Assembly (NCBI GenBank): GCA_964567895.1
Contig: CAZMOX010000004.1
Coordinates: 560 to 64,559, forward strand
DNA: 64,000 nucleotides
Source: an uncultured Spirochaetales bacterium
GTDB lineage: Bacteria > Spirochaetota > Spirochaetia > JABMQR01
Reading direction: 5' to 3'
In this document: in pieces, positions 1,929-24,217 of the stretch
How positions within the stretch are numbered: the stretch's first letter is position 1
Layout of the letters: every line of letters starts with the position of its first letter
Translations under genes and position numbers: made by a program
Notes under the pieces: model-generated
Database searches by the model: none
What the model saw: only the letters and a program-made list of their open reading frames with translations
What the model was told of the DNA's origin: nothing

Positions 1929-1966
1929 TAAAATAACAAAATATACCAATATAGGTGGAAAGTACT

Positions 1967-5892: not shown

Positions 5893-5906
5893 AATCTTAT
5901 ACATCG

Positions 5907-5950
5907 GGATTCAGTCTGTTGTGATGCAGACTGAATCCTGCTTTTCTTTT
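5907..5950 (+). terminator. Rho-independent terminator after SBP gene
   Basis: GGATTCAGTCTG-ttgtgatg-CAGACTGAATCC perfect 12-bp stem followed by tgcttttctttt. Confidence 0.7.
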
Positions 5951-6149: not shown

Positions 6150-7013
6150 ATGGATAATAAAACGTTTGTTTCATTTGTTAGTCCCAGTGTAATAATAATG
6201 CTTGTACTTATGGTTTTCCCATTGGTTACTGCAATTGTTTTGGGATTTAATTATATCACCTTTCAAAATTTTGCTGATCCGGTCTTTGTAGGCCTTCAGA
6301 ACTATAAAGAATTGCTGGTCGATTCAGCATTTTGGGGATCACTAAAATTTACTCTCATCTATATAGTCTTCACGGTCCCGGTTCAGATTGCCATCGGGTT
6401 TTTAGTTGCGCTTCTTCTTGATCAGGTAGAGCGTTTTCGCGGAGTCTATATTGCGGCTTCTCTTTTACCTTTTGTTGTTACTCCAGTAGTAGGAACATTA
6501 ATGTTTAGAAGCTTGTTTGATAGAGGCGGAGGGCTTTTTTACTATCTCCTTGATGTTCTTTTTAATTATGAATTTTTTATGACTACTACATCGGTAAGGC
6601 TTTTAATAATTCTACAGGGGATTTGGTATACGACCCCATTTTCTATGATTACTCTTTTTGCCGGGCTTCAGACCCTGCCGAAATCAGCAATGGAAGCTGC
6701 TACTGTTGATGGTGCGAATGCGTTTCATAAATTGTGGTATGTGGTTCTTCCTCATCTGCGATCATTATTTGTTTTTATAGGAATGATTGCTGTTATGGAT
6801 GCATATCGTGTATTTGATAATATTCTGGTTATGACGAAAGATAACCCTATATTTAATGCCGATACAATTATGTATTACAACTTCAAGATGGCAATTTCGT
6901 TTGGAAGACAGGGCAAGGCGAACGCTATGTCAATTCTTACAATCTTTGGTATATTTATTGTCTTGATTCCATTCCTTAGAACTACGTATAAACAGCAGAT
7001 GGAGAAGAGATAA
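6150..7013 (+). CDS. ABC transporter permease (MalF/UgpA-like, BPD_transp_1)
   Basis: Six predicted TM segments with an EAA-loop region (AATVDGANAFHKLWYVVLPHL). Confidence 0.85.
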   Translation: MDNKTFVSFVSPSVIIMLVLMVFPLVTAIVLGFNYITFQNFADPVFVGLQNYKELLVDSAFWGSLKFTLIYIVFTVPVQIAIGFLVALLLDQVERFRGVYIAASLLPFVVTPVVGTLMFRSLFDRGGGLFYYLLDVLFNYEFFMTTTSVRLLIILQGIWYTTPFSMITLFAGLQTLPKSAMEAATVDGANAFHKLWYVVLPHLRSLFVFIGMIAVMDAYRVFDNILVMTKDNPIFNADTIMYYNFKMAISFGRQGKANAMSILTIFGIFIVLIPFLRTTYKQQMEKR

Positions 7014-8044
7014 TGAGAAAAATCAAAAACCCTATTGCCAGAGCAGGTATACATATACTGTTATTTGTATGGGTCTTTTATAGTGTTATCCCATTCTTAT
7101 GGACGGTATTAACCTCTCTGAAGCTTCCTGTTGAAGCGAATAACAGGACTCCAAAAATATTCGGATTTAAAGTTACTTTTGATAATTATGCATCATTGTG
7201 GTTGAAGCCTGATCAAAAACGAAGACCTTTTACCTATGATAATTTTATACCTGTGGGTATTATTATTCTGGTGATTTTGGTTTTGCTGGTTGCCTTCTAT
7301 TTTCTTTCTCAGAGATACTTAAAGCTTTCTAAACCCAAAGCGGGACTTATACTGACAGGCATATTGCTGCTCGTTGTTATCTTTTTGCCGAATGTGGCTG
7401 AGATGTCAAAATCCTATGACTATTTTGTAAATAGTATAATTGTTACTTTCTTTACGCTTATTATTTCGATAAGCATAGGCTGTCTTGGCGGGTATGCGAT
7501 TGCCAGATACGATAAGATCTGGGGTGTTGTGATACTGATTGCTGCTCTTGCTTTCAGGGCCTTACCCCGAATGGCTTTTGTACTTCCCTACTACTATCTT
7601 GGAAATGCTATTAATCTGTATGATACAAAAATACTATTGATTATGATACTGGTTGCTGTTAATCAGCCTTTCACTATATGGATGCTTAGAAGTTTTTTTA
7701 TGGATATACCGAAAGAGCTGGAAGAAGCCGCCATGATTGACGGGGCAGGCCGCCTGCAGTCCTTTTTTAGAGTAATACTGCCAATTTCCTGGCCGGGAAT
7801 TATTACCACAAGTCTCTTTACGTTGTTACTTGCCTATAATGAATTCCTACTGCCGAGAATATTGACTCAGTCAAACTGGACTTTTCCTGTTCAGATAGCT
7901 TCTTATACAAGTGGTGAGGATGCAGCTTATAAAACAGTAGCTGCTGCGGCATCGGTATCGATAACCTTACCGTTAATATTTATTATCGTTATTTTCCAGA
8001 AAAGACTAGTGAAAGGATTAGCTGTAGGAGCTGTAAAGGGGTAA
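7013..8044 (+). CDS. ABC transporter permease (MalG/UgpE-like), with long N-terminal periplasmic loop
   Basis: EAA motif AAMIDGAGRLQSFFRVILPISWPG. The start overlaps the upstream stop (ATGA). Confidence 0.85.
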   Translation: MRKIKNPIARAGIHILLFVWVFYSVIPFLWTVLTSLKLPVEANNRTPKIFGFKVTFDNYASLWLKPDQKRRPFTYDNFIPVGIIILVILVLLVAFYFLSQRYLKLSKPKAGLILTGILLLVVIFLPNVAEMSKSYDYFVNSIIVTFFTLIISISIGCLGGYAIARYDKIWGVVILIAALAFRALPRMAFVLPYYYLGNAINLYDTKILLIMILVAVNQPFTIWMLRSFFMDIPKELEEAAMIDGAGRLQSFFRVILPISWPGIITTSLFTLLLAYNEFLLPRILTQSNWTFPVQIASYTSGEDAAYKTVAAAASVSITLPLIFIIVIFQKRLVKGLAVGAVKG

Positions 8045-8185
8045 GGAAATTAATTTTGAAAGAACCTTACATGAGAGTATGAAGCTGTTTTTGAGTAAGC
8101 AAGAAGATATAATTATGACATTAAGTTCAGCCTGCAGTATTCGGGCTGTACCTATTTTTATTTGATAAATATTCAGGAGATGATA

Positions 8186-9193
8186 ATGGATGAGAAATTA
8201 TTACTAGAAGCAAAGGAACTTGTAAGCGCTTATCATAAAAAACTGTCAGAAAAGGGCGGTATCTTCAGCATTAAAAAGATTTTGCCGGATTATTTAGATA
8301 CGCAAACTATTTTTGATTGCTCTCATCCGATAAACAGATTAACTGGCATAGATGAAGTCTATCAGGGTTTCTGGGAACCTTTTATCAAGGCATTTCCTGA
8401 TGTACAAAGAAGAGACGATATTTTTCTTGGCGGAGTATTTAAAGAGGGGTATTGGATATCCTCAACTGGCTACTTTGCAGGAAATTTTGAGAATGATTGG
8501 CTTGATATTCCGGCAACAAAGACTCTGGCCTATGTCAGGTTTGGTGAGTTTAATAAAGTTGAAAATGGTAAGATTACTGAAACGATTATCATCATAGACT
8601 TTCTTGACTTGATGCGGCAGGCGGGTGTCAAAGTCCTTGCAGATAGCTTAGGTTATGAAGGGCTTGTTCCTGCTCCTTCAAACCAGAAGGGACTGATGAG
8701 TGAAATTCAGAATAGAGAAGAGAGCAAAGGGACGCTCAGTCTTGTTGAAGATATGCTTTCTGGTCTCATGACCTATGATGAGTCGGGTGAATTGGGCAGT
8801 ATGGGCCAGAATAGATTTTGGGATGAAAAGATGATGTGGTACGGTCCCTCAGGTATAGGTACTACAAGAGGTCTTGATGGTTTTGAGAAATATCATCAAA
8901 GATCCTTTTTGAAGGCTTTTCCTGATAGGGTTGGAGGAAATCACCGCTCCCGAATTGGGGATGGTATGTTTGCAGCTTCAACTGGTTGGCCGAGCATTAA
9001 TGCAACACATGCAGGTGGGGGATGGCTTATGATGCCTGCAACCAATAAAAAAATAACTATGCGTGTTATGGATTGGTGGCGCAGAGAAGATGACAAGCTA
9101 GTTGAGAACTGGGTGCTTATCGATATAATTGAGTGCCTTAATCAATTTGGGGTGGATTTATTTGCACGTATGAGAGAGATGCTGCAGAAGTAG
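8186..9193 (+). CDS. Tandem SnoaL-like (NTF2-fold ester-cyclase family) domain protein
   Basis: AGGAG RBS 6 nt before ATG 8186; the ORF caller used TTG 8162. Paralog of the 1-715 and 1967-3112 genes (MMWYGPSGIG...ENWVLIDIIECLNQFGVDLFAR). Confidence 0.7.
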   Translation: MDEKLLLEAKELVSAYHKKLSEKGGIFSIKKILPDYLDTQTIFDCSHPINRLTGIDEVYQGFWEPFIKAFPDVQRRDDIFLGGVFKEGYWISSTGYFAGNFENDWLDIPATKTLAYVRFGEFNKVENGKITETIIIIDFLDLMRQAGVKVLADSLGYEGLVPAPSNQKGLMSEIQNREESKGTLSLVEDMLSGLMTYDESGELGSMGQNRFWDEKMMWYGPSGIGTTRGLDGFEKYHQRSFLKAFPDRVGGNHRSRIGDGMFAASTGWPSINATHAGGGWLMMPATNKKITMRVMDWWRREDDKLVENWVLIDIIECLNQFGVDLFARMREMLQK

Positions 9194-9332
9194 CACTGCA
9201 GAAGATTGTAGATTAACGATCAATAAACACAAAAAGAGTGAAATATACGACTTTTTATTCTGGACAATGGAAGTTTATGGCGCTATAATATGACTACGTA
9301 TTCAATGGCTGGTCAAATAGCAAGGAAGAAGA

Positions 9333-10388
9333 ATGGCTGAACAAATATTTTTTAAAGTAGAGAAATTGCAGAACTATCTTTCGGAAATGTACTCGAAAGC
9401 AGGTTTATCAAAAGAGGATGCGGATATTTGTGCGGAATGCACAATACTGACAAACCTTTGGGGAGTAGATTCCCATGGGGTGCTCAGGACTCCTGCCTAT
9501 ATAAAAAGAGTGCTTAAGGGTGCTGTGAATAAGAGTGCAAACCCTTTTTACATAAAAGGAGAAGGTGGACCACTAGCCATTATGGATGGCGATGCCGGAA
9601 TGGGCTATGTAGTTGGTTCCAGGGTAATGGATGCTGCTGTAGCAAAAGCGAAAGAGTTTGGGTTCGGAATGATTGTGGTTAAAAACAGTAATCATTTTGG
9701 AGCTGCCTCTTTGTATACACGTCGGGCTGCAGATGCCGGTATGTTGGGCATTGTGACAACAAATGTTATACCAAATATTGGAATGCCGGGAAATATAAAA
9801 CCAGTATCCGGGAATAATCCATTAGCTTTAGCAGCACCTATTGGTAAACCCTATCCATTTTCATTGGATATCTCTATGAGTGCTGTTGCCGGGGGGAAGC
9901 TTCTTCTGGCTCAAAAAAAAGGTGACAAAATTCCGACCACGTGGTCAATAGATAAAGAAGGAAACCCAACTGATGATCCATTTAAAGGATTTGAAGGGAT
10001 TTTACTTCCCACCGGAATGCACAAAGGTCTGGGAATGTCTTTCTTCATAGATATCATAACTGGTGTTATGAGTGGAGGACCCTTTTTACAGAACATAAAG
10101 AGTATGTACAAGCATGCAGATGAGCCGAGTTTGACATCGCATGTCTTTTGTGTTATCGATCCGGAATTCTTTATGGAGAAAGAAGAGTTTTCCGGGAGAA
10201 TGGCTCAGTGGGTTGATATGATTAAATCTACGCCAATGGCTGCCCCGAAAACTGAACAGATAATTCCCGGAGAGATTGAGTACAACTGTGAGATGGCAAG
10301 AAGGAAGTCGGGGATTCCTTTACCTGCTGAACTGGTTGAAGATCTCAAGGCACTGGAAGAACAATTTAAAATGGATAACAGACTGTAA
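9333..10388 (+). CDS. Ldh2-family (malate/L-lactate/sulfolactate/ureidoglycolate dehydrogenase-type) NAD(P)-dependent 2-hydroxyacid dehydrogenase
   Basis: Ldh_2 hallmark VVKNSNHFGAASLYTRRAADAGMLGIVTTN and overall length. Confidence 0.8.
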   Translation: MAEQIFFKVEKLQNYLSEMYSKAGLSKEDADICAECTILTNLWGVDSHGVLRTPAYIKRVLKGAVNKSANPFYIKGEGGPLAIMDGDAGMGYVVGSRVMDAAVAKAKEFGFGMIVVKNSNHFGAASLYTRRAADAGMLGIVTTNVIPNIGMPGNIKPVSGNNPLALAAPIGKPYPFSLDISMSAVAGGKLLLAQKKGDKIPTTWSIDKEGNPTDDPFKGFEGILLPTGMHKGLGMSFFIDIITGVMSGGPFLQNIKSMYKHADEPSLTSHVFCVIDPEFFMEKEEFSGRMAQWVDMIKSTPMAAPKTEQIIPGEIEYNCEMARRKSGIPLPAELVEDLKALEEQFKMDNRL

Positions 10389-10434: not shown

Positions 10435-11349
10435 ATGAAAAAACAGACTGAATTTAAGTTAAACCAGAGAGATTCTGTGTGGTTTCAGGAAAATAGTGCA
10501 CATGTAGTTGTTGAATATGCAAAGAATGTTTGTGATATTGCAATCCTTCCAATTGGAGCAATTGAACAGCATTCAGCACATGCGCCAACAGGAATGGACA
10601 CCTATAATGCAATTGGAATTTCAGAGAAAGTGGCTGAGAAAACCGGTGCCATGCTTCTTCCCTGTCCCATGTACGGATCGCATCCCCATCACCATTGGGG
10701 AATGCCCGGAACAATTCCATTAACCTATGAAACACACATTGGACTTCTGATGGATATCATCAGAGGAGCTGCTGTATCCGGTTACAATAAGTTCTTAATC
10801 ATTTCGGCTCATGGTCAAGTTTCCTCTACCATAGTTGCAACACATAAATTGGGTATTGAAGGATTATTTACCATCTCATCAACATGGTACGACTTTCTCC
10901 GGGATGATAAAACAGTTCTTGAAGACTATATGTGGCATGCTGATGAAGCAGAGACTTCTGTTGGTCTCTATCTCTATCCGCAGTTTATAAAGATGGAACT
11001 GGCTGAGGCTGGTTACGGCACTCCTCTTATTGATTCAAAATGGAAAATTGCTCCGGGTCAGGCAGCAAAGGCAGGGACACTCTACCACTTTGAAGGAACC
11101 TTTGCTCTTCCGGAAAAAGATGATCTTGATAATGGCGTTATCGGAGATCCTACAAAAGCAACTTACGAAAAAGGTAAGGGTGTTATTGAAGGTGTTGTAA
11201 AGCATTATGCAGGACTTGTTGATGAAATCAAAACAAAATACCCCTGTGGAATAAATCCGCTTGGATTTAGAAACCCGGCTGGTTATGCAGGTACTTCAGA
11301 TATTGTATATGACAAAGATCATGACAGCAAAGGGCAGTTAATTAAATAA
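10435..11349 (+). CDS. Creatininase-family (creatinine amidohydrolase / ArfB / inosose-hydrolase-type) metal-dependent hydrolase
   Basis: ILPIGAIEQHSAHAPTGMD and His/Glu metal-ligand pattern. ~300 aa, longer than canonical creatininase. Confidence 0.7.
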   Translation: MKKQTEFKLNQRDSVWFQENSAHVVVEYAKNVCDIAILPIGAIEQHSAHAPTGMDTYNAIGISEKVAEKTGAMLLPCPMYGSHPHHHWGMPGTIPLTYETHIGLLMDIIRGAAVSGYNKFLIISAHGQVSSTIVATHKLGIEGLFTISSTWYDFLRDDKTVLEDYMWHADEAETSVGLYLYPQFIKMELAEAGYGTPLIDSKWKIAPGQAAKAGTLYHFEGTFALPEKDDLDNGVIGDPTKATYEKGKGVIEGVVKHYAGLVDEIKTKYPCGINPLGFRNPAGYAGTSDIVYDKDHDSKGQLIK

Positions 11350-11461: not shown

Positions 11462-12883
11462 ATGAACAAACCAAGAATTGGTATTATCACTTTCGGTGAT
11501 AACAGAGATCCTGAATGGAATAAAGTATTTAAGCAAATGACTGTTCCCCGGCATGATCTTGCTGTGGAGATGCTTAAAACTCTTCCTATAGAGGTAATAT
11601 CGGTAAAAGAACCTGCAAGATCACGAGAAGAGATTAATAATCAGGTTGATTTGCTGAAAAATGAAGGGATTGATGTATTTATTGCGCATACTCCATGCTG
11701 GACTTCACCCAATTTGGTGGTGCACGGTGTTCAACGAATGGAGATGTTTACCATCATGCTTGGGAATCGTGACATGTCAACACATGGCTGTGTCGGTTTA
11801 TTTGGTGCTGCAGGTGCTCTTTCACAGATTGGACAGAGTCACAAACGAATTCGTGTGGATTATACCGAAGAGATGTATAGGGAGAAGCTGTTGCCGATAC
11901 TTCGTGCATCAGCTGTTAAAAACCGTCTTAAAGGTTCAGTTATGGGCCACTTCGGGGGACGATCGATCGGTATAGATACTGCGACCTTTGACCCGATGGG
12001 ATGGCGGAAGCAGTTTGGGGTTGATGTTGAACATATTGATCAGGTGGAGATTCTTCGCCGAGCAGAATTGGTTTCACAGGAACGTATTGACCGGATGCGG
12101 GAATGGATTGAAAAGAATGCAAAAGAAGTTCTCTATAATGATGATAAATTCACCCCAAAAAAATTTGATTTTCAACTTGCCTGCTATATTGGTACAAAAG
12201 ATATTTGTAAGGATCTTGGTTTGGACTTTACCGCAATTAAGTGTATGCCGGAACTTTCAAATAGTTATGTCCCTCAATGTATGACAGCTACATTTCTTCC
12301 GGACAATTTTGATGGCGAAGAGGGTGAAAAAGAGGGAATTGTCATGGCTTGTGAGGCTGATGGTGATGGGGCTCTTACCCAGCAGATTCTTAAAATTGTT
12401 TCTGGCGGGATGCCGACTCTATTCGCTGATGTCAGCCATATTGATGATAGTGAAAAGATTGTCTACTGTGTGAATTGCGGCGCTCTTTGTGCATGGTATG
12501 CAGGCCGAAACGAAAACCCTAAAAAAAATCTTAATCTCATAACTATTAAACAATCTATCCGGCCAGGCGGTGCAGCTATTTCAGGTTTTTTTGCATCACC
12601 AGGGCCTATACAATTAGCGCGACTCTATCGGGTGGATGGGAAATACCGAATGGCAATTATCCCTGCAGAAGCAGTAACGCCGAATAAAGATACTGTGGAG
12701 AAATTTATTGAAGCCCGGGGCTCTCATCAGCTTCCCACACTGTTTGCTAAAGTGAATTTTTCTGTAGAAGATTTTGTTGATGAATATGGTTCTAACCATA
12801 TTTCAGGTGTTGCCGGGAATTACACGAAAGAGCTGATTGAAGTATGTAAGATGCTTGATATTGAGCCGGTAGTGTTTTCATAA
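11462..12883 (+). CDS. L-fucose/L-arabinose isomerase family (aldose-ketose isomerase) protein
   Basis: MACEADGDGALTQ catalytic-region motif, ~470 aa, fucose-isomerase-like C-terminal domain. Confidence 0.7.
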   Translation: MNKPRIGIITFGDNRDPEWNKVFKQMTVPRHDLAVEMLKTLPIEVISVKEPARSREEINNQVDLLKNEGIDVFIAHTPCWTSPNLVVHGVQRMEMFTIMLGNRDMSTHGCVGLFGAAGALSQIGQSHKRIRVDYTEEMYREKLLPILRASAVKNRLKGSVMGHFGGRSIGIDTATFDPMGWRKQFGVDVEHIDQVEILRRAELVSQERIDRMREWIEKNAKEVLYNDDKFTPKKFDFQLACYIGTKDICKDLGLDFTAIKCMPELSNSYVPQCMTATFLPDNFDGEEGEKEGIVMACEADGDGALTQQILKIVSGGMPTLFADVSHIDDSEKIVYCVNCGALCAWYAGRNENPKKNLNLITIKQSIRPGGAAISGFFASPGPIQLARLYRVDGKYRMAIIPAEAVTPNKDTVEKFIEARGSHQLPTLFAKVNFSVEDFVDEYGSNHISGVAGNYTKELIEVCKMLDIEPVVFS

Positions 12884-12895
12884 GGATTCAATAGG

Positions 12896-14035
12896 ATGAA
12901 TAGAAGAGAAATATTTACTGCAGCTATGAACCATCAGGAAACAGGCCGCGTACTTGTTGATCAGGGAAAACAGGTCGGTTCGATACATAAATTCGGATAC
13001 GCCAGGATACGCGAGATGATGGGACTTCCTCCTAAAGAGGGCATTATTCTTGATAGAATGAGTCAGTGCGTTATCTCCGATGAAGATTTGCTTGAAGCCT
13101 GGGGAATTGATTTTAGATGGTTAATTCCGAACTGGGTACAGATTGAGGAGATTGATGAAGATCATTATAGAAATCTATTTGGTGTTCTATTCAGGAATTC
13201 CGGAGACTATTTTTCTATATATGATGCTCCCATGAAAGGAAAAGAGATTGATGTTCTAGATAGCTACAAGTGGCCGAATCTGCACGATACTGCAATGTTT
13301 GCAGGGTTAAGAGATCGTGCAGAGGATTTACACAACAATACTGACTATGTAATTGGAGCAGATGGGATCAAGGGCGGAATTTTCCAGACAAGTCTTGAGT
13401 TGAGAGGCTATGATCAACTCTATATGGATTTTTACCTTGAACCGGATTTTGCTCATGCACTACTTGATAAAGTCACTGAATGCTATAAAGAGATGTATAC
13501 GGATTACATGCGTGAAGTGGGGGAGTTTGTACAGATTGTCTATCTCACAGATGATTTTGGCAGTCAGAATTCCCTGTTGATGTCCGGAGACATGTGGGAA
13601 ACATTCATGAAACCCCGTCAGGCAGATCTCATTGCACATATCAAATCTTTAGCACCACATGTGAAGGTAATGTTCCATACAGATGGATCGGTACTTCCTA
13701 TTATCGATGGAATGATCGATATGGGTGTTGATATCCTTAATCCTGTACAGACTTCTGTAGAGGAGTTGAAGGATACCCATGCTTTGAATGAGCAATATGG
13801 TGAAAAAATTGCATTTCACGGTGCTATTGATGTACAGAATGTTATGGTGAATGCAACTCCTGGCCAGATTCGGGAAGAAGTTAATCTACGTCTGTGCGAT
13901 CTGGGAAAAGGCGGTGGCTATATTATTGCTACCTGCCATAATATTGGTTACGACATACCTCCTGAGAACTTAAAAGCATTTTATGCTGCAGTTAAGGAGT
14001 TTTCTGCATATCCGTTAAAACGATTGGGAGAGTAG
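12896..14035 (+). CDS. Uroporphyrinogen-decarboxylase (URO-D)-like TIM-barrel protein (MtaA/CmuA-like family)
   Basis: C-terminal pattern VDILNPVQ...IAFHGAIDVQNVM...GGGYIIATCHNI is typical of the UroD/MtaA family. Confidence 0.65.
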   Translation: MNRREIFTAAMNHQETGRVLVDQGKQVGSIHKFGYARIREMMGLPPKEGIILDRMSQCVISDEDLLEAWGIDFRWLIPNWVQIEEIDEDHYRNLFGVLFRNSGDYFSIYDAPMKGKEIDVLDSYKWPNLHDTAMFAGLRDRAEDLHNNTDYVIGADGIKGGIFQTSLELRGYDQLYMDFYLEPDFAHALLDKVTECYKEMYTDYMREVGEFVQIVYLTDDFGSQNSLLMSGDMWETFMKPRQADLIAHIKSLAPHVKVMFHTDGSVLPIIDGMIDMGVDILNPVQTSVEELKDTHALNEQYGEKIAFHGAIDVQNVMVNATPGQIREEVNLRLCDLGKGGGYIIATCHNIGYDIPPENLKAFYAAVKEFSAYPLKRLGE

Positions 14036-14042: not shown

Positions 14043-14828
14043 ATGAAAATTACAAATGATAACTATGTGAAAAAACTGCTGAAAGAGGGGAAGAAAGTTA
14101 CAGCAGCCTGGGCACAGGCTGCAAGTCCTATTACCGCAGAAATATTGGGAGATGCGGGATTTGATGCCGTCATGATAGATATGGAACATGGTCCTGGAGA
14201 TATCATGATGCTTATCAATCAGATCAATGCCTTGAAAGGTCAACCGGCTGTTCCTTTTGTACGGGCACCCTGGAATGATTTTGTTCAGCTGAAAAAGATA
14301 CTTGATGCCGGAGTCTATGGGGTACTTGTTCCGTATGTGAATAGTGCTGAAGAAGCAGAAGCAGCGGTTAAAGCAGTAAGATATCCAACTGAAGGAATCA
14401 GGGGAGTTGCAGGTAGTCCAAAAGCGCCGCACTTTGGGAACAACTCTATGGAATATATGAAAAAGGCAAATGAAGAGATATTTCTCATGACTGCAGTAGA
14501 GACTCCGGAAGCCGTAGCAAATCTGGATGAATTGCTTAAAGTTGAAAAACTTGACGGCATTTTTATCGGTCCAATGGATCTTGCAACGAGCATGGGGTAT
14601 TTTGGAAATCCTCAGCATCCTGAAGTGCAGAAAGCTATACAGGAAGTTGAAGAAAAAGTATTTGCCAGTAACAAAATTCTCTCTACTATTGCCGGTTCCT
14701 GGGAAGATGCAAAAACGAAATACGATAGAGGATATCAGCTGCTGTTACTCATGTCTGATACCGTAACACTTAGCAAGACAGCCAGAGCTCTAACCGGCTC
14801 ATTTGCAGATGCCTATCCCGGACGATAA
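14043..14828 (+). CDS. HpcH/HpaI-family class II aldolase (2-keto-3-deoxy sugar acid aldolase type)
   Basis: GFDAVMIDMEHGPGD and GIFIGPMDLATSMG motifs of the HpcH/HpaI/YfaU family. Confidence 0.8.
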   Translation: MKITNDNYVKKLLKEGKKVTAAWAQAASPITAEILGDAGFDAVMIDMEHGPGDIMMLINQINALKGQPAVPFVRAPWNDFVQLKKILDAGVYGVLVPYVNSAEEAEAAVKAVRYPTEGIRGVAGSPKAPHFGNNSMEYMKKANEEIFLMTAVETPEAVANLDELLKVEKLDGIFIGPMDLATSMGYFGNPQHPEVQKAIQEVEEKVFASNKILSTIAGSWEDAKTKYDRGYQLLLLMSDTVTLSKTARALTGSFADAYPGR

Positions 14829-14875: not shown

Positions 14876-15889
14876 ATGATAAAAGTAGGAGTAGCCGGAT
14901 ACGGCGTAATAGGACAGAGGCTTGCCGATGGAGTTGCATGGCAGAAAGATATGGAGTTGGTTGGAGTTGCAGATGTGGCTCCCACATTACCAATACGTGC
15001 ACTTTATGAGAGTGGAATGCGGTACAAACTGTATACTGCAGTACCTGAGAAGAAAAATCTGCTCACTGATTTAGGTATTCCTGTAAGCGGAACCCTTGAA
15101 GATCTGGTGCAGGAAGTCGACATCATACTTGATGCTACCAGTGCCGGAATTGGAGCTAAGAATAAAGAGCTATACCAAAAATATAATACCAAAGCTATAT
15201 TTCAGGGCGGTGAGAAAAATGATGTAGCAGATGTTTTTTTCCATGGATATGCAAACTATGAAAAAGGTGTTGGAGCTGACTACTTAAAACTTACCAGCTG
15301 TAATACAACCGGATTGATTCGTGCAATTGATGCAATTGACCGTGCAGTTGGTGTGGTGAAGACAGCAATTACGATCATTAGACGTGTTGCAGATCCCGGC
15401 GATTATCATCGTGGACTTACTAATGCCCTACAGGTTGATAAGGCTCCCAGCCATCAGTGTCTTGATTTAATGACAATAATGCCGCATGTGGATGCAACCG
15501 GTATACTGATTCATACACCGGTAACCCATGGACATATTATTACTCCGGTTGTTAGTACCAAGAGTAAAATAAACAAAGAAGAATTGTTGGCAATTTTTAA
15601 TGCACACCCCAGGATCAAAGTGGTACGGATTGAAGATGGGTTTCTTGGTAATGCTTCTTTATTTAAGTATGCCAGAGATCTTGGGAATAAACGCGGTGAC
15701 ATGTATGAAGTTGCTGTTTGGGAAGAGTCTATTGTCAATAGTGGAGATGACATCATGTTTGCTATGAATATCCCGCAGGAGTCTGTCGTTATTCCTGAGA
15801 CTATGGACGGCATACGTGCAGCAATGAAGATGCAGTTGACACGTGATGAAGGAACAGCCGAAACAAATAAATATCTTTGGATGAAATAG
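14876..15889 (+). CDS. gap: Archaeal-type (type II) glyceraldehyde-3-phosphate dehydrogenase homolog
   Basis: 337 aa. Type-II GAPDH signatures: N-terminal GxGxIG Rossmann, active-site TSCNTTGL, and overall similarity to archaeal GAPDH. Confidence 0.8.
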   Translation: MIKVGVAGYGVIGQRLADGVAWQKDMELVGVADVAPTLPIRALYESGMRYKLYTAVPEKKNLLTDLGIPVSGTLEDLVQEVDIILDATSAGIGAKNKELYQKYNTKAIFQGGEKNDVADVFFHGYANYEKGVGADYLKLTSCNTTGLIRAIDAIDRAVGVVKTAITIIRRVADPGDYHRGLTNALQVDKAPSHQCLDLMTIMPHVDATGILIHTPVTHGHIITPVVSTKSKINKEELLAIFNAHPRIKVVRIEDGFLGNASLFKYARDLGNKRGDMYEVAVWEESIVNSGDDIMFAMNIPQESVVIPETMDGIRAAMKMQLTRDEGTAETNKYLWMK

Positions 15890-18436
15890 ATGGAAAAGCG
15901 AACTGAACATATACCTGAGGAAGTTTCAGGCTCCCCGGGATTTCTCCCGATGGAGAGCTTCGAGGTGAAGGGGAAACGAGTCTTGCTGCGGCTGGATGTC
16001 AACTCCCCGATCGACCCGGAGACCAAACGGATCGTAAATGAGAACCGGATGGATAAAAGCCTGCCGACCCTGAAGTGGCTGCTCAATCAGGGTGCGAAAG
16101 TGGCCGTAATCGCCCATCAGGGCGATACGCTGGATTACCAGAATCTGATTCCTTTAAGTGAACATGCAGAAAAGCTGAGTGCAAAACTGGGACGGGAAGT
16201 TGCCTACATCGATGATGTCTGCGGCCCTGCTGCCCGGGAAGCTGTTGCAGGTTTGTCCGATGGACAGTGTATTATCCTTGGTAATCTACGGTATTTGTGT
16301 GAAGAGATATCCACCTTTGAGGATGCAGTGAAACTGCGCCCCGAAGAGATGCTGAACACCTGGTTAGTGCGTTCTCTTGCACCCCTATTCGATCTCTACA
16401 TAAATGATGCCTTTGCTGCAGCTCATCGGAATGCACCGAGTATGGTAGCTTTTCAGGAACTGCTTCCCAGTGCAGCCGGACCGCTGCTCTATAAGGAAGT
16501 AAGTGCGCTTACAAAGGTGATGAAATCACCTGAGCATCCAGCCGTTTTTGTTCTAGGCGGGGCCAAAATATCCGACGCCTTTGGGATGATGGAACAGGTT
16601 CTGGCCAACGGGACAGCCGATACGATTCTGACAATCGGGGTAACCGGAGAAATATTCCTGATAGCCGCAGGGTATGACTTAGGCTCTGCAGTACAGAAAT
16701 TCATAGAAGACCGGCACCTGGGAGTTTTTATTACCGAGGCAAAGAAGTACCTGAAATCCTATCCGGGACATATTGTACTGCCCGAAGATCTGGCCTATGG
16801 GGACGGAGGTTTGCGTAAAGAAATTCCAGTCTCAGAGCTGCCGGTTGATGAACTGTTTATGGATATAGGGAGTAATACGATACAAAGCTATAAAGAGATT
16901 ATTGCTAATGCAGGAACCTTGTTTGTGAACGGACCGGCAGGAGTATTTGAAGATGGATTGTTTGCCAAAGGGACGGAAGAGTTGTGGAAAGCGATTGCAG
17001 CTTCAAACGGATACTCGGTAGTAGGCGGTGGAGATAGTGTAAGTGCGGCAGCGAGGTTTACCGAGCTTTCAGACTACAGCTATGTCTGTACCGCAGGCGG
17101 TGCAATGGTACGGTTTCTTTCGGGGAAAAAGCTTCCGCTGATTGAGGCGATGGAGAAAGCGGGAGGCAAGGGAGCGGAGACGGGAGACGGGAGGATGAAG
17201 ATAAACCTTCCGTATAAGAGAGATGCTATACAGATAGATATACCGGCAGAACGGTTGGCCGGGGTGCTTGAGCCTAATGAGGTAGTGAGTGCTGAGGATC
17301 CGATCGCTGTTGTTCGCAAATCTTTTTCTCACGTTTATGGGACTCAGAGTTTTGCCGAATTTCTGGAAGCACCCGGTGAACTGCTGGTTATCGTAAATGA
17401 CGGAACAAGGCCGACTCCTACCCGGTTTGTTATCGAGGCCATAGCCGATGAGCTGGAAATTGCCAAAGCAACATTCATGATCGCTACCGGAGTACACCGC
17501 GGACCGACAGCAGAAGAGTATGAATTTATCTTTGGCAGCCAATATACTCGATTCGCGGAACGCATTCTGGTGCATGATGCCCGCAAGGATGAGATGGAGT
17601 ATCTGGGAGTCTCAAAGAACGGCACCGAAATGTATCTGAATAAAAAAGGAGTAGGGTTTGACAAGATCCTGATCATTGGGTCAGTAGAGCCGCACTACTT
17701 TGCAGGCTATACCGGAGGCCGGAAAGGATTGCTTCCGGGGATAGCTTCCTATCATACCATTGAACAGAACCACAAACATGCACTTTCTCCGAAGGCCTGT
17801 GCCTTGGCGCTGGAAGGCAATCCGGTGCATGAGGATATGATTGATGCGTTGAAAGTGGTGAAGAATAACCTATTCACGATAATGACGGTATTGGACAAAC
17901 ATCAGGAGATCTATGGGGTAACATCCGGGGATATTTATGCAGCCTTTTCCGGAGCAATTGGCAAAGCGAATGAGGTATTTGTGGCACCGATAGCAGAGAA
18001 GGTTGATGTAGTAGTAACGTGTGCAAAGTATCCTATGGATGTTGATTTGTATCAGGCACAGAAAGCGATAGAGAATGCGAAGCTGGCACTGAAGCCCGGC
18101 GGAATACTGATACTGGTGGCAGCGTGTCGGGACGGGATAGGGGAGAAAGCTTTTAGCGATCTGCTGAGTTCCTGTGAAACTAGTGAAGCGGTTTTGGCAA
18201 AGATAGAGCAGGAGTATAAGCTGGGGTATCACAAGGCGGGAAAGATAGCCGAGGTGAACCAGTGGGCGCAGATATGGGCGTATACGGAATTAGCAGATGA
18301 GACATTGGAGCAGATATTTCTGCATCCGGTTAACAATTTGCAGGAAGCGATAGATAAGGCCTTACGGGAGAAGGGTGATAGAGCGAAAGTGCTCTTTCTG
18401 CCTGACGGCAGTGTCACTGTCCCTCAATTATCATAA
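15890..18436 (+). CDS. pgk: Fusion protein: archaeal-type phosphoglycerate kinase (N-terminal ~410 aa) + LarA-like nickel-pincer-nucleotide 2-hydroxyacid racemase/epimerase domain (C-terminal ~420 aa)
   Basis: PGK motifs LLRLDVNSP, YINDAFAAAHR, VLGGAKISD, NGPAGVFE, GGGDSVSAA. The C-terminal LarA/DUF2088 motifs are IVNDGTRPTP, ATGVHRG and GSVEPHYFAGYTGGRK. The 848-codon ORF is uninterrupted. Confidence 0.8.
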   Translation: MEKRTEHIPEEVSGSPGFLPMESFEVKGKRVLLRLDVNSPIDPETKRIVNENRMDKSLPTLKWLLNQGAKVAVIAHQGDTLDYQNLIPLSEHAEKLSAKLGREVAYIDDVCGPAAREAVAGLSDGQCIILGNLRYLCEEISTFEDAVKLRPEEMLNTWLVRSLAPLFDLYINDAFAAAHRNAPSMVAFQELLPSAAGPLLYKEVSALTKVMKSPEHPAVFVLGGAKISDAFGMMEQVLANGTADTILTIGVTGEIFLIAAGYDLGSAVQKFIEDRHLGVFITEAKKYLKSYPGHIVLPEDLAYGDGGLRKEIPVSELPVDELFMDIGSNTIQSYKEIIANAGTLFVNGPAGVFEDGLFAKGTEELWKAIAASNGYSVVGGGDSVSAAARFTELSDYSYVCTAGGAMVRFLSGKKLPLIEAMEKAGGKGAETGDGRMKINLPYKRDAIQIDIPAERLAGVLEPNEVVSAEDPIAVVRKSFSHVYGTQSFAEFLEAPGELLVIVNDGTRPTPTRFVIEAIADELEIAKATFMIATGVHRGPTAEEYEFIFGSQYTRFAERILVHDARKDEMEYLGVSKNGTEMYLNKKGVGFDKILIIGSVEPHYFAGYTGGRKGLLPGIASYHTIEQNHKHALSPKACALALEGNPVHEDMIDALKVVKNNLFTIMTVLDKHQEIYGVTSGDIYAAFSGAIGKANEVFVAPIAEKVDVVVTCAKYPMDVDLYQAQKAIENAKLALKPGGILILVAACRDGIGEKAFSDLLSSCETSEAVLAKIEQEYKLGYHKAGKIAEVNQWAQIWAYTELADETLEQIFLHPVNNLQEAIDKALREKGDRAKVLFLPDGSVTVPQLS

Positions 18437-18459: not shown

Positions 18460-19119
18460 ATGAAGAAGAAAGTAGGAGTAATACATACCTTTCTCTATTC
18501 AGTAGAAGCACTTAAAGAACTCTTTGAAGAGTTAATTCCCGAAGTGGAAATGATTAATATCATAGATGACTCACTTTTAAAAGAAGTATTGGCAAATGGC
18601 GGACCTACCCCGGCAGTAGTACGAAGAATATGCAACTATGCACAGGAACTTGAGAACCTTGGATGTGATATAATTCTTAATCAGTGCTCATCAGTCGGAG
18701 AAGCTGCAGATATAGCACAGAAGCTGATATCAATACCCTACATCAAAGTTGATTCACCTATGGCCTGTGAAGCAATACGGCTGGGGAAAAAGATTGGTAT
18801 GGTCGCAACTGCATATACTACACTGGGACCATCAGTACGTCTTGTAGAGACAACAATCAAAGAGTTGGGTTCTGATGCCGTGGTGAACGAATGTTTTGCT
18901 GAGGGTGCATATGATGCACTGCTGAATGAGGGAAACAAAGCAAAGCATGATGAAATATTAATGGCTACCATTGATAAAGCGTGTGCTGAAAACGATGTAG
19001 TATGTTTGGCACAGGGTAGTATGATTAGTTTGCTCGAGAAATGTAAAGATAAACCTGTTCCTGTAATACACAGTTTCCGTAGCGGCGTAGCTCAGATTCG
19101 TGATATACTAGGGCTCTAA
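18460..19119 (+). CDS. Asp/Glu/hydantoin racemase family protein
   Basis: ~220 aa with a Cys-containing two-subdomain pattern (ILNQCSS...VVCLAQGSM) typical of Asp/Glu racemase-like enzymes. Confidence 0.65.
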   Translation: MKKKVGVIHTFLYSVEALKELFEELIPEVEMINIIDDSLLKEVLANGGPTPAVVRRICNYAQELENLGCDIILNQCSSVGEAADIAQKLISIPYIKVDSPMACEAIRLGKKIGMVATAYTTLGPSVRLVETTIKELGSDAVVNECFAEGAYDALLNEGNKAKHDEILMATIDKACAENDVVCLAQGSMISLLEKCKDKPVPVIHSFRSGVAQIRDILGL

Positions 19120-19141: not shown

Positions 19142-20176
19142 ATGGCAAAGGTTCTGCAGAATAAACGCGCAACATCAAAAGATGTAGCCAGAGAGGCAGG
19201 AGTCTCACAATCAACTGTTTCCAGAGTGTTCAACAGCAGCGGTATCAGTGTCTCTGATGCGAAAAAGCAAAGGATATTTGAGACTGCTGAGAGGTTGGGA
19301 TACAGACCCAGTCAGATAGCCAGATCCCTGAACTCGCAGAGTACTAAAATTATTGGTTTTGTTCTTAGTGAATTTGAGAATGTATTTTATATGAGAGTTC
19401 TCTCACTCTTTACAAAAAAGCTGCAGGAGGCCGGATATTCGGTAATGATTTTCAATCTGAATGATGATCATGAAGTAGAGAAAAATCTCAAAACAGCACT
19501 TGAATATCAGGTTGCTGGTCTGATAATTACTTCCGCAACCCTTTCCTCACCATTAGTTGAGGGCTGTCTCCGATATAAGACACCGGTCTTTCTTTTTAAT
19601 CGAATTAGTGATGGACTGAATGTAAATACGGTGTGCTGTGATAATATTGATGGTGGAAAAACTATAGCAAATTATCTGATAGATCGCGGTCATCAAAAAT
19701 TGGTCTATATTTCTGGTGAAGAAAAATCTTCAACCAACCGTGACAGGAAAAAGGGATTTATTGAGCAGTCGAAAAGCAGGGGGTTGGCAGAAGTTGTTGT
19801 TCTCCCCGGGAATTATAAGTATGAAGCAGGATTTGCTGCTGCCGATACATTAACTAAGGAAAAAGTAGAGTTTGATGGTGTTTTTTGCGCTGCCGATGCA
19901 ATGGCATTGGGTTTTATTGATTATATAAAATATAGAACCGAACTGAGAATACCTGAAGATATCTCTATCATAGGGTTTGATGGAATTCCGCTGCATAACG
20001 AGATCCATTACCAGTTAACTACTTTCAAACAACCGATGGAGAGAATGGTTGATAAAACTATAGAAGGACTGCTTGATAAGATTAAAAATTTTAGGACAGA
20101 TGCAGTGCATTATCTCTTTTTTGGCCAAATCATGGTACGTGGGTCAGTTGCAGATAGAAATAAAGAGTTAAGGTAA
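19142..20176 (+). CDS. LacI family transcriptional regulator
   Basis: N-terminal HTH ATSKDVAREAGVSQSTVSRVFN plus a periplasmic-binding-protein-like sugar-binding fold. Confidence 0.85.
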   Translation: MAKVLQNKRATSKDVAREAGVSQSTVSRVFNSSGISVSDAKKQRIFETAERLGYRPSQIARSLNSQSTKIIGFVLSEFENVFYMRVLSLFTKKLQEAGYSVMIFNLNDDHEVEKNLKTALEYQVAGLIITSATLSSPLVEGCLRYKTPVFLFNRISDGLNVNTVCCDNIDGGKTIANYLIDRGHQKLVYISGEEKSSTNRDRKKGFIEQSKSRGLAEVVVLPGNYKYEAGFAAADTLTKEKVEFDGVFCAADAMALGFIDYIKYRTELRIPEDISIIGFDGIPLHNEIHYQLTTFKQPMERMVDKTIEGLLDKIKNFRTDAVHYLFFGQIMVRGSVADRNKELR

Positions 20177-22628: not shown

Positions 22629-22970
22629 ATGACACAAAAACAAATAAAAGAATCATTGCCTTTAGATACTTCTGATATTATATCCAGGCTTGGCGAAAGG
22701 ATAAGGATTGCCAGAAAACGGCGAAGATTTTCAAGCGAAGTAATGGCAAAAAGAATGTTCGTTTCAAGAAAAACCCTTTTTCGTTTGGAAAAAGGTGATC
22801 CCGGTATCTCTCTTGGAGTCTTTGCATCTGCATTATGGGTTCTGGGACTTGAAAGGGAGTTATTAAAAATCGTAGATCCCGAGAAGGATAAAGTCGGAAT
22901 TTTCCACGAACGTCAACAACTCTCTAAACGTATCCGTAAGAAATCTACGGATAACAAGTTGGATTTTTAA
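22629..22970 (+). CDS. hipB: XRE-family HTH antitoxin (HipB-like)
   Basis: HTH region LGERIRIARKRRRFSSEVMAKRMFVSRKTLFRLEKG. It lies immediately upstream of a HipA kinase gene. Confidence 0.7.
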   Translation: MTQKQIKESLPLDTSDIISRLGERIRIARKRRRFSSEVMAKRMFVSRKTLFRLEKGDPGISLGVFASALWVLGLERELLKIVDPEKDKVGIFHERQQLSKRIRKKSTDNKLDF

Positions 22971-22987
22971 TAATAATGGAATAAAAT

Positions 22988-24217
22988 ATGGCAATTAAAG
23001 AAATTATTGTTTTTGTTTATCTACCGGGAGAACCGGTTGCTGTTCCAGCGGGTATATTTACTCACGACTCTGATTTAAGAGTGGGGAATTTTGCTTACGG
23101 GCACCGTTACCTTGAACGAGACAATGTCATTCCTGTCGATCCTATTTCACTGAAATTGGGAACCCTTCCTGAAGCAGTAACAACAAATGCCGGATTGTAT
23201 GGGGCTTTTCGTGATGCTTCACCGGATTACTGGGGCAGATTGGTGATTGCAGCTGAACAGAAAACGGTATCTGAGAACATTTCAGAAATTGATTTTCTAT
23301 TGGGTGCAAATGCAACACGGGTCGGGAATCTTGACTTTAGGGACAATCCTGATTCTCCAGAACCAAAGCTGGAACCTCCTGTGTTTAATCAGCTTTCAAA
23401 TATAATTCGTGCTGTAGAAAATATCGAAGCTGGAAAAACAGCAGAAGAACATATACTGCATCTACTCCGGCAGGGAAGCAGCATGGGGGGAGCACGTCCA
23501 AAATGCACAGTCGAGTGGGATGATTCTCTTTGGATTGCTAAATTCCCGGCAAAAGGAGATACGGTAAACATTCCTGGAATTGAGTATGCTACTATGAAAC
23601 TTGCTAAACGATGCGGAATTGATGTGCCGAAAGTAAGAGTGAAGTCTATAGCAGGTAAAGATGTATTTCTTATTCAGCGTTTTGACCGGGAAAGAGCTGC
23701 GGCTGGATGGCTAAGAAAAGGTTTTATCAGTGCACTTTCTTTAATGCGGCTTGATGAAAAAGAGAGACTTAAATGGAGTTATTTGTCAATTGCAGCTTTT
23801 ATGCGTCAATATTGTTCCACGCAGGATATTTCCCAACTGTTTCGTAGAATAATTTTCAATATTCTGGTACGGAACACCGATGACCATCCCAGGAATCATG
23901 GGTTTCTTGTAACTGAAAATGGATTATCTCTTTCACCCGCATATGATATTGTTCCTGAACTGACACCAATAGGTGTGTGTACTGGTTTTAACCTTGCGAT
24001 GACCGTTGGTAAAACAGGGCGCGAAGGAACCCTGGAGAATGCCATGAGTTCCTGCGAACAGTTCGGACTTTCAGGACAACGGGCAAAAGAGATTCTCGGG
24101 CAAATGATCGAAACTGCACATAACTGGGAAAATTTTTTTGTCGAGTTAGGTGTTATGGAAAGAGAAATTAAACTCCTTGCTCCCAGTTTCGAACGATGTC
24201 GTGAAGTAATTAAATAA
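22988..24217 (+). CDS. hipA: HipA-family serine/threonine kinase toxin
   Basis: HipA motifs GGARPKCTV, NTDDHPRNHGFL and SPAYDIVP. Confidence 0.85.
   Translation: MAIKEIIVFVYLPGEPVAVPAGIFTHDSDLRVGNFAYGHRYLERDNVIPVDPISLKLGTLPEAVTTNAGLYGAFRDASPDYWGRLVIAAEQKTVSENISEIDFLLGANATRVGNLDFRDNPDSPEPKLEPPVFNQLSNIIRAVENIEAGKTAEEHILHLLRQGSSMGGARPKCTVEWDDSLWIAKFPAKGDTVNIPGIEYATMKLAKRCGIDVPKVRVKSIAGKDVFLIQRFDRERAAAGWLRKGFISALSLMRLDEKERLKWSYLSIAAFMRQYCSTQDISQLFRRIIFNILVRNTDDHPRNHGFLVTENGLSLSPAYDIVPELTPIGVCTGFNLAMTVGKTGREGTLENAMSSCEQFGLSGQRAKEILGQMIETAHNWENFFVELGVMEREIKLLAPSFERCREVIK

Follow-up and report, generated by a model that had tools for sequence, protein, structure and literature searches.

Why would a bacterial sugar-catabolic operon carry an archaeal-type glyceraldehyde-3-phosphate (GAP) dehydrogenase (GAPDH) directly ahead of a phosphoglycerate kinase (PGK) that is itself fused to a racemase? 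The question is posed by a gene at positions 14876–15889 of a 64-kb stretch of contig CAZMOX010000004.1 from an uncultured Spirochaetales bacterium; we refer to the whole analyzed stretch of 64,000 nucleotides as the window and to the gene product as GAPDH2. Our answer, to which we give about an even chance, is that GAPDH2, the adjoining PGK-like kinase, and LarA (a nickel-pincer-nucleotide 2-hydroxyacid racemase) would form a portable three-step ATP module acting on D-malate semialdehyde, not a part of glycolysis. The comparison set comprised about 170 related loci with neighborhoods of ±10 kb, each designated by an L number. We report first what is read directly from these data: the families of the proteins, the fusion, the structure of the clade, the gene contexts, and the residue patterns.

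A Bacterial Clade of Type II GAPDH

The gap open reading frame (ORF), on the + strand, encodes 337 aa plus a stop codon, follows a GGAG ribosome-binding site 8 nt upstream, and holds the motif LKLTSCNTTGL. Its product passes two NCBIfam models, NF003251 "type II GAPDH" (408 bits; cutoff 185) and TIGR01546 (307 bits; cutoff 233); type I GAPDH models match it at only E ~1e-4 and type I GAPDH structures at E ~4e-4. The top solved structures are the archaeal GAPDHs of Methanothermus fervidus (1cf2), Pyrococcus horikoshii (2czc), M. jannaschii (2yyy), and Sulfolobus (1b7g), matched end to end at 228–251 bits and 36–42% identity. A first-pass annotation of the window had called an archaeal-type GAPDH of this length with a TSCNTTGL active site, and the model scores and structure matches bear this out. 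NCBIfam release 20 holds no dedicated model for GAPDH2 or its linked PGK; GAPDH2 is named there plainly as type II GAPDH.

GAPDH2 resembles the archaeal enzymes in family, length, and the SCNTT, RRxxDP, and PSH motifs, and it conserves the catalytic Cys142, Arg169/170, His193, and G8/G10/G13 of the GxGxxG dinucleotide fold. It differs from them in forming an exclusively bacterial, tight clade with its own invariant residues. Set against 77 other type II sequences, the clade has Lys for Arg at position 138, two residues before SCNTT; PSHQ for PSHH at position 194, with Gln in place of the second His in 87/87 members; Leu for Ala at 211; and Gly for Ala at 19. Position 33 is Asp in 87/87 members and Lys in the four solved archaeal enzymes, where we take Lys33 to mark an NADP-preferring cofactor site. 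Asp33 predicts NAD+ use and a catabolic direction for GAPDH2. Unlike the archaeal enzymes, GAPDH2 is encoded in catabolic operons and is not the cell's gluconeogenic GAPDH.

The clade is widespread. When one genome per GTDB species was scanned, at least 555 bacterial genomes, spread over five or more phyla, proved to carry a GAPDH2 relative. The best 80 of these are at least 73% identical to GAPDH2 and come from Spirochaetota, Clostridia, Atribacterota, Kiritimatiellia, Leptolinea, and Lucifera; the Clostridia among them are Clostridium magnum, C. pascui, C. peptidivorans, C. tanneri, Fonticella, Caloramator, Christensenellaceae, Lachnospiraceae, and Intestinibacillus. Among the best 120 database relatives (at least 79% identity), all those with a named source are Spirochaetota (Sphaerochaeta, Pleomorphochaeta, Alkalispirochaeta). 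An exhaustive search of 1.84 billion cluster representatives returned 146 clusters at E ≤ 1e-30.

A PGK Domain Fused In Frame to a Nickel Racemase

The pgk-larA ORF (15890–18436; 848 aa) begins at the base after the gap stop codon and joins PGK and LarA in frame. The same PGK–LarA protein is encoded by L085, an independent JGI metagenome contig with 100% identity to the window over 6.8 kb, so a sequencing error is ruled out as the origin of the fusion. A homology search with the whole fusion returned nine proteins and no second PGK–LarA fusion, so that the fusion is known from two identical contigs. In the nearest relative, L005, which is collinear with the window at 82–87% DNA identity, exactly the LarA-coding 1.27 kb is absent; in the more distant L006, pgk and larA are separate genes.

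The kinase domain is complete (PF00162, 360 bits, profile positions 2–379 of 379), and alignment with Pyrococcus horikoshii PGK (2cun) and Thermotoga PGK (1vpe) shows the nucleotide-site motifs GGAK, NGPxGxFE, and GGGD to be kept. The annotated archaeal character of the PGK is confirmed at the level of the best solved relative, which is 2cun at 265 bits, against 206 bits for 1vpe. In 79 GAPDH2-linked PGKs aligned with 2cun, 1vpe, and 3uwd, Asp23, Asn25, Arg38, His62, Arg122, and Arg170 are invariant. The phosphate-patch position occupied by Arg65 is Asp in 59 of these, Ser in 19, and Gly in 1; it is basic in 0/79. The window PGK has Asp here and thus lacks the complete basic patch for 3-phosphoglycerate (3-PG) formed by His62, Arg65, Arg122, and Arg170. 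As a control, the same position is Lys or Arg in 118/120 Thermococcales PGKs and Arg in bacterial structures. The window PGK therefore matches 2cun in its two-domain fold and most 3-PG ligands, and differs in having Asp for Arg/Lys65, in its fusion to LarA, and in its constant partnership with GAPDH2 and never with tpi.

The LarA domain matches Pfam Lar_N (167 bits) and LarA_C (67 bits), carries equivalents of H108, H174, K184, and H200, and has as its top solved relative the malate racemase Mar2 (243 bits), the LarAH6 enzyme of Thermoanaerobacterium thermosaccharolyticum (6d6z). Fold, catalytic residues, and the LYQAQK and GxHK (Lys351) motifs are shared with Mar2; fusion to a kinase is not. 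The 53 LarAs linked to GAPDH2 fall into two lineages with a mutual identity of only ~33%, and all 53 have in common the catalytic His/His/Lys/His and the Mar2-type Tyr172, Gln293, His350, and Lys351. Three of the four residues of the Mar2 specificity set (Tyr172, Lys173, Gln293, Lys351) are present in the window LarA, and the LarA of the C. magnum operon passes the malate-racemase equivalog NF052593 (585 bits; cutoff 500). Lys351 of Mar2 has been proposed as a ligand of malate's second carboxylate (PMC7583248). The uncharacterized LarAH group 4 is likewise near to the window LarA in fold and catalytic residues, and a supplementary table of Desguin et al. (PMC7583248) lists PGK (COG0126), without interpretation, beside 3/18 group-4 LarAHs.

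A gene of the Asp/Glu/hydantoin-racemase family also stands alongside the cassette in L005, L006, L009, L014, L018, L022, L043, L069, and L074. It is kept in L005 and L074, which have no LarA, and its product might substitute for the nickel racemase or complement it.

Gene Neighborhoods of the GAPDH2 Clade

At 84 loci, ORFs were labeled by BLASTP against Pfam/NCBIfam-annotated reference proteins and neighbors within 11 kb of GAPDH2 were counted; many of the loci are contigs cut short, which makes the counts minimum values. A PGK of the linked type is present in 82/84 loci, the other two contigs ending there, and a LarA homologue in 55/84. Next in frequency come iolB/D/E/G (about 36/84), malic enzyme (31/84), and split transketolase (31/84), followed by the Asp/Glu-racemase-like gene (9/84), Ldh_2 (7/84), and HpcH aldolase (4/84; the window type, represented by L005, L006, L074, and partly L008). 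Neither tpi nor a type I gap gene was found in 87 GAPDH2 loci (1.47 Mb) or in the window.

Four inositol operons were annotated in full: those of C. magnum (L035), Fonticella (L049), Thermincola (L026), and a Lachnospiraceae metagenome-assembled genome (L070). Each contains a transporter, IolG/E/D/B, the N and C subunits of transketolase, GAPDH2, PGK, a LarA scoring above the malate-racemase equivalog cutoff, and usually malic enzyme; full annotation of the four revealed no IolC, IolJ, or IolA and no aldehyde dehydrogenase of any kind. IolD, IolE, and IolG pass equivalog cutoffs in L002, and the cassette recurs in the metagenome loci L092, L125, L131, L146, and L167. A second fusion links the kinase to transketolase: L086 (130–2229) encodes a 699-aa PGK–transketolase_N protein, followed by transketolase_C, LarA, and an aldehyde:ferredoxin oxidoreductase. 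Transketolase, malic enzyme, and iol genes also occur together at L111 and L114, where there is neither a GAPDH2 nearby nor an aldehyde dehydrogenase.

Further observations concern single loci or subsets. A possible GAPDH2–PGK fusion in L087 (1963–3594; P0277, 543 aa) has domains that look truncated and may be an assembly artifact; it was not used. Directly 5' of gap2 in L002, L010, L011, L012, L016, and L021 (at ~9330–9980) lies a gene for a 216-aa cytidylate-kinase-like P-loop protein (PF13189), which could be an unrecognized sugar-acid kinase in place of IolC; if so, those Sphaerochaetaceae genomes would use a phosphorylated route.

The cassette is present twice in some genomes. C. magnum (L034, L035) and the Spirochaetia chromosome OY782041 (L074, L082) each have two GAPDH2 copies, and in one further assembly the 3.6-kb gap2-pgk-larA unit occurs twice at 99.4% DNA identity (L001, 9996–13614; L002, 9996–13617). 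The flanks of this duplicated unit are unrelated—a class II aldolase/IolB operon in L001 and an iolG/B/D/E operon in L002. Because near-identical copies sit behind unrelated operons, gap2-pgk-larA behaves like a duplicated or mobile unit. The annotation had judged a role in core glycolysis unlikely, and that judgment gains from the varied sugar-acid operons, the two copies per genome, the absence of tpi from all 87 loci, and the presence of the clade in Clostridium, whose species also have type I gapA and pgk.

A Proposed D-Malate Semialdehyde Module

From sequence and context we infer the substrate, reaction order, cofactor, and aldehyde source of the module. The substrate would be a non-phosphorylated, carboxylate-bearing 2-hydroxy-aldehyde whose conversion yields ATP and a usable hydroxy-acid; the most likely candidate is D-malate semialdehyde (3-hydroxy-4-oxobutanoate), the carboxylate analogue of D-GAP. 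GAPDH2, using its catalytic Cys, inorganic phosphate, and probably NAD+, would oxidize this aldehyde to D-malyl phosphate; the PGK-like domain would form ATP by passing the acyl phosphate on to ADP, with D-malate as the other product; and the LarA domain would convert D-malate to L-malate for central metabolism. In operons with malic enzyme, a fourth step would take L-malate to pyruvate and CO2. The annotation had likewise favored a non-canonical aldehyde oxidized with substrate-level ATP gain, and that general expectation is the best fit to the gene contexts.

Two sources of the aldehyde are envisaged. In the window, the HpcH aldolase may split a 2-keto-3-deoxy acid into pyruvate and the aldehyde; in most other genomes, a split transketolase would release it from 5-dehydro-2-deoxy-D-gluconate made by IolG/E/D/B. 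This IolB product is a free ketose, fructose-like (D-threo) at C3'/C4', and phosphorylated 5-dehydro-2-deoxygluconate is the substrate of the fructose-bisphosphate (FBP)-aldolase homologue IolJ. Transketolase would take C6–C5 as a glycolaldehyde unit and leave OHC-CHOH-CH2-COO−, which is D-malate semialdehyde. Transketolase is specific for D-threo ketoses, and the aldehyde, hence the malate, would for this reason be D-configured; malic enzymes are L-specific, so a racemase would be needed between the two.

Several lines of evidence support the scheme. The proposed route uses each enzyme of the complete inositol operons exactly once and ends at pyruvate. The loss of Arg65 in PGK, the Mar2-type residues in LarA, and the PGK–LarA and PGK–transketolase_N fusions count in its favor, as do the tightness of the GAPDH2 clade with its own invariant active-site residues, the duplication of gap2-pgk-larA as one unit, the recurrence of malic enzyme, the absence of tpi from the loci, and the absence of a sugar kinase from the window operon in Pfam/NCBIfam scans of its ORFs. 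By analogy, HpaI, the nearest relative of the HpcH aldolase, releases succinate semialdehyde, the deoxy analogue of malate semialdehyde. Tartronate, succinate, and malonate semialdehydes were rejected as substrates: their acids are achiral or have no 2-hydroxyl, which would leave LarA without a role.

Evidence Against the Module and Competing Explanations

A number of observations weigh against D-malate semialdehyde as the substrate. The window LarA falls short of the LarAH6 malate-racemase model NF052593 (384 bits; cutoff 500), and the position of Mar2 Lys173 is Phe in 53/53 linked LarAs, including those that pass the cutoff. In L005, LarA has been lost while the remaining operon is kept. Yeast PGK Arg65 mutants stay active, so the Arg65 loss is suggestive only. 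In the window operon, the scheme would also require a C7 precursor that yields pyruvate and malate semialdehyde. A metagenome scan with a split-transketolase profile yielded mostly generic split transketolases and no case in which an aldehyde dehydrogenase replaces GAPDH2/PGK. Some cassettes keep other company: a lactonase, dehydrogenases, and a transaldolase in L062, and aldehyde:ferredoxin oxidoreductases in L031. In many inositol loci of Sphaerochaetaceae, a P-loop kinase (Cyt_kin2) stands in place of transketolase and malic enzyme, neither of which lies within 10 kb. In L001 the cassette is accompanied by an ADP-dependent kinase, a class II aldolase, and an IolB-like isomerase, a set that looks like the classical phosphorylated route to dihydroxyacetone phosphate (DHAP) and malonate semialdehyde; in such a setting a canonical GAPDH and PGK would be sensible and LarA would have no obvious substrate.

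These last loci lead to the best-surviving alternative, which we nonetheless consider unlikely: that GAPDH2 and its partner are a true D-GAP dehydrogenase and 3-PG kinase of archaeal ancestry, encoded in operons as a probably NAD+-linked booster of lower glycolysis. Triose phosphate would come from the neighboring aldolase, transketolase, or transaldolase, and LarA and malic enzyme would have some other function. Such a role accords with the equivalog-level match of GAPDH2 to a curated type II GAPDH model, with a full PGK domain that keeps nearly all 3-PG ligands, and with the very high protein conservation typical of glycolytic enzymes; most of the residues that bind the canonical substrates are retained in both proteins (RR169/170 in GAPDH2; Arg38/122/170 and His62 in PGK). 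Transketolase, transaldolase, and aldolases ordinarily make GAP, so their co-occurrence fits it too, as do the transaldolase context of L062 and the Sphaerochaetaceae loci whose kinases and class II aldolase would yield DHAP/GAP. However, a canonical pair leaves unexplained the PGK–LarA fusion, the movement of gap2-pgk-larA as one unit, and the recurrent company of malic enzyme and a malate racemase. The transketolase-type inositol operons would be left without an enzyme to oxidize the C4 aldehyde, and the pair would be redundant in Clostridium. That tpi is never adjacent, that position 65 is never basic, and that the window operon has no kinase tell in the same direction.

A second alternative keeps the chemistry of the module and changes its substrate to another 2-hydroxy-aldehyde: free D- or L-glyceraldehyde, which would give glycerate and make LarA a glycerate racemase; tartrate semialdehyde from keto-uronates; or a wider range of acidic aldehydes derived from sugars. 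We regard this as improbable. The cassette does lie behind varied C–C-cleaving enzymes (HpcH aldolase, transketolase, transaldolase, class II aldolase), a C6 2-keto-3-deoxy acid cleaved by an HpcH aldolase would release a C3 aldehyde, and some LarA homologues are glycerate racemases (PMC11770544). Yet the invariant Arg122, Arg170, and His62 of PGK point to an anionic tail and not to CH2OH, the LarA signature is Mar2-like and not of the lactate/glycerate-racemase type, malic enzyme co-occurs, and protein identity of at least 73% across contexts points to a single substrate.

The substrates named in the annotation—L-glyceraldehyde-3-phosphate (L-GAP), giving L-3-PG that is then racemized, or sulfolactaldehyde, giving sulfolactate, each with ATP gain—fare worst and appear very improbable, even though a racemase fused to PGK would suit the conversion of L-3-PG to D-3-PG, sulfolactaldehyde is nearly isosteric with malate semialdehyde, the top NCBIfam matches of the window's Ldh_2 protein and isomerase are a sulfolactate dehydrogenase and a sulfoquinovose isomerase (both far below cutoff), and TauE-family genes adjoin 12 loci. 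L-GAP would require a kinase to make the aldehyde-phosphate, which the operon does not encode, and transketolase yields D-configured aldehydes only; the loss of Arg65 argues against a phosphate tail, and the linked LarA has specificity residues of the malate-racemase type. For sulfolactaldehyde, the window offers no sulfoquinovose dehydrogenase, dehydratase, or sulfolyase genes, the isomerase scores 78 bits against a SftI cutoff of 700, the cassette in other genomes keeps company with inositol, transketolase, and malic enzyme genes and not with sulfoquinovose genes, the dominant inositol and malic enzyme contexts involve no sulfur chemistry, and the TauE-family genes lie on the opposite strand.

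Ancestry and Base Composition

Identity within the GAPDH2 clade has a minimum of 57% and a median of 75%, and no other type II GAPDH comes nearer to the clade than 47%, a sharp break in similarity; the named outgroups are Hodarchaeota, Aenigmarchaeota, and the bacterium Caldinitratiruptor. Judged from sequence, the archaeal ancestry of GAPDH2 is real but old, and the clade is under unusually strong constraint. Across hosts, the GC content at third codon positions (GC3) of GAPDH2 genes ranges from 0.12 to 0.78, each time matching the adjoining genes.

In the window, gap has a GC3 of 0.34, like its flanks, pgk-larA has 0.50 in both domains, and the other genes examined span 0.27–0.45. The anomaly is confined to pgk-larA; the foreign-looking segment is therefore pgk-larA and not gap. 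The unfused pgk of L005 is equally anomalous (GC3 0.52), a pattern suggesting that, before the window and L005 lineages parted, a copy from a donor of higher GC took the place of pgk-larA. The horizontal acquisition read into this locus thus holds in part: an old archaeal ancestry stands, and a recent genomic island carrying gap is not supported, its GC3 being equal to that of the flanks and its identity to any archaeal sequence being at most 47%. The comparison of island and flanks that the annotation had called for sets apart pgk-larA alone.

The Window Operon and Its Surroundings

The genes around gap are listed in Table 1. Their order—HpcH aldolase, GAPDH, PGK, racemases, LacI—is as the first-pass annotation described it, with the in-frame PGK–LarA fusion added. 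On the + strand between 8150 and 20176, no terminator-like site exceeds 8 stem pairs or 4 G-C pairs; a strong hairpin lies 3' of the solute-binding-protein gene at 5905–5940.

Table 1. Coordinates of the genes surrounding GAPDH2 in the window
Feature	Positions	Strand	Basis
ABC uptake system, solute-binding protein (SBP)	4579–5892	+	Pfam SBP_bac_1
ABC uptake system, two permeases	6150–7013, 7013–8044	+	Pfam BPD_transp_1
SnoaL-like (NTF2-fold) protein	8162–9193	+	Pfam PF07366; one of three paralogues in the window
Ldh_2-family (malate/L-lactate/sulfolactate-type) 2-hydroxyacid dehydrogenase	9333–10388	+	Pfam PF02615, 365 bits
Creatininase-family hydrolase, nearest IolN (ring-opening 3-dehydro-scyllo-inosose hydrolase)	10435–11349	+	PF02633
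L-fucose-isomerase-like aldose/ketose isomerase	11462–12883	+	Pfam Fucose_iso_N1/N2/C
URO-D/MtaA-like protein	12896–14035	+	PF01208, 92 bits
HpcH/HpaI class II pyruvate aldolase	14043–14828	+	PF03328
Type II (archaeal-type) GAPDH, bacterial GAPDH2 clade	14876–15889	+	NCBIfam, structure matches, clade residues
PGK-like kinase domain of the 848-aa fusion protein	15890–17179	+	PF00162
LarA (nickel-pincer-nucleotide 2-hydroxyacid racemase) domain of the fusion	17180–18436	+	Lar_N and LarA_C
Asp/Glu/hydantoin-racemase-family protein	18460–19119	+	PF01177; PDB matches weak
LacI-family regulator, final operon gene	19142–20176	+	Pfam/NCBIfam

Several of these assignments stay at the family level. The top NCBIfam match of the Ldh_2 protein is L-sulfolactate dehydrogenase, at 257 bits, below its cutoff of 500; the creatininase-family hydrolase scores 149 bits against NF041098, below the cutoff of 245; and the FucI-like isomerase reaches 78 bits against the sulfoquinovose isomerase SftI, whose cutoff is 700. 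The solved enzymes nearest to the HpcH aldolase are 4-hydroxy-2-oxoheptanedioate aldolases (197 bits) and 2-dehydro-3-deoxygalactarate aldolase (184 bits). An NCBIfam scan found no sulfo-sugar dehydratase in the operon, and the sulfoquinovose/sulfolactaldehyde gene set is not present at equivalog level. Neighbor labeling found no IolG/E/D/B in the window itself, no larB, larC, or larE turned up among the window ORFs covered by the Pfam scans, and an Rfam search of the full 64 kb gave no family above its gathering threshold. Homologues of the FucI-like isomerase directly adjoin split transketolase genes in several unrelated metagenome contigs (L104, L113, L115, L127, L128, and L160), a pairing that hints at further isomerase-plus-transketolase sugar pathways.

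Other features of the window include the three SnoaL-like paralogues (23–715, 1955–3112, and 8162–9193), two of them double-length, and, upstream of or inside the sugar-acid locus, an AraC regulator (778–1632) and a 316-aa ORF with no Pfam match (3122–4072). Just downstream of the operon region, a small HTH gene precedes one for a HipA-like toxin kinase (22629–24217; HipA_C, 175 bits), and the two look like a HipBA-type toxin–antitoxin pair. A 901-aa molybdopterin oxidoreductase with N-terminal 2Fe-2S/4Fe-4S domains (formate-dehydrogenase/NuoG-like; 24436–27141) lies in a local GC bump, and the gene for a MobA-like NTP transferase (27632–28318) follows it. A Pel-like exopolysaccharide locus (33056–39319) encodes a DUF3492 glycosyltransferase (PelF-like), PelG, and a DUF2194 protein, together with two ORFs that have no Pfam match (33056–34120 and 39316–40602). 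The EF-P gene (43859–44422) stands between a lysine-2,3-aminomutase-like radical SAM gene and a truncated class II lysyl-tRNA-synthetase-like gene, and this neighborhood (42179–45490) is an EpmA/EpmB-type EF-P modification set. In a second GC bump, 30 kb downstream, a class I fumarate hydratase alpha subunit (48698–49576; PF05681, 311 bits) shows that the organism encodes an L-malate-acting enzyme.

Relation to Known Systems

The transketolase-type operons share their upper IolG/E/D/B steps with the classical Bacillus-type myo-inositol pathway (IolG, E, D, B, C, J, A); in place of IolC, IolJ, and IolA they have transketolase, GAPDH2, PGK, LarA, and malic enzyme. In the transketolase-based sulfoquinovose pathway, a split transketolase acts on a non-phosphorylated ketose, in parallel to the proposed route. 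A search of one literature library returned no paper connecting type II GAPDH or PGK with inositol, transketolase, or malate racemase; a 2026 paper on inositol in Dysosmobacter describes the classical kinase/aldolase route.

The acyl-phosphate/semialdehyde chemistry proposed for the C4 dicarboxylate has counterparts in aspartate kinase and aspartate-semialdehyde dehydrogenase and in the engineered malate kinase and malate semialdehyde dehydrogenase (PMC5481828). The engineered pathway differs in its enzyme families, runs in the opposite direction, and acts on L-malate at the distal carboxyl, by way of malyl-4-phosphate and 2-hydroxy-4-oxobutanoate. Walther et al. built these activities from aspartate-pathway enzymes and stated that a natural malate kinase and malyl phosphate were unreported (PMC5481828). 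In the carnitine pathway of Acinetobacter baumannii (PMC11353897), 3-hydroxy-4-oxobutanoate is oxidized stereospecifically to D-malate, as in our proposal; there, however, the aldehyde dehydrogenase is non-phosphorylating and yields no ATP, and D-malate is used through a decarboxylating dehydrogenase and not through a racemase and malic enzyme. The in vivo role of malate racemases and the physiological source of D-malate are an open question according to Desguin et al. (PMC7583248).

Implications

A broader claim, which we hold tentatively and place a little short of even, is that anaerobes of at least five phyla have an undescribed carboxylate version of lower glycolysis, with a natural phosphorylating D-malate semialdehyde dehydrogenase descended from type II GAPDH and a D-malyl-phosphate:ADP kinase descended from PGK. 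Together with a split transketolase it would provide a kinase-free, ATP-yielding inositol route in which 5-dehydro-2-deoxygluconate gives a C2 unit and D-malate, and D-malate proceeds through L-malate to pyruvate. In the window, the same cassette, with its kinase and racemase fused, would have been enlisted to follow an HpcH aldolase in a pathway for a cyclitol or C7 sugar acid.

If the D-malate semialdehyde assignment is true, two textbook glycolytic families have a widespread neofunctionalized branch, which automated annotation of hundreds of genomes labels "type II GAPDH" and "phosphoglycerate kinase." Metabolic reconstructions for anaerobes of gut, sediment, and marine habitats would then place the GAPDH2 and PGK genes wrongly in glycolysis and overlook a kinase-free, ATP-yielding fermentation route for inositol and sugar acids. 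Metabolic engineers would gain natural malate-kinase-type and phosphorylating malate-semialdehyde-dehydrogenase activities that have so far been built by design, both having been reported only as engineered enzymes of another family and with different regiochemistry. Nickel-pincer malate racemases, in turn, would gain a physiological role.

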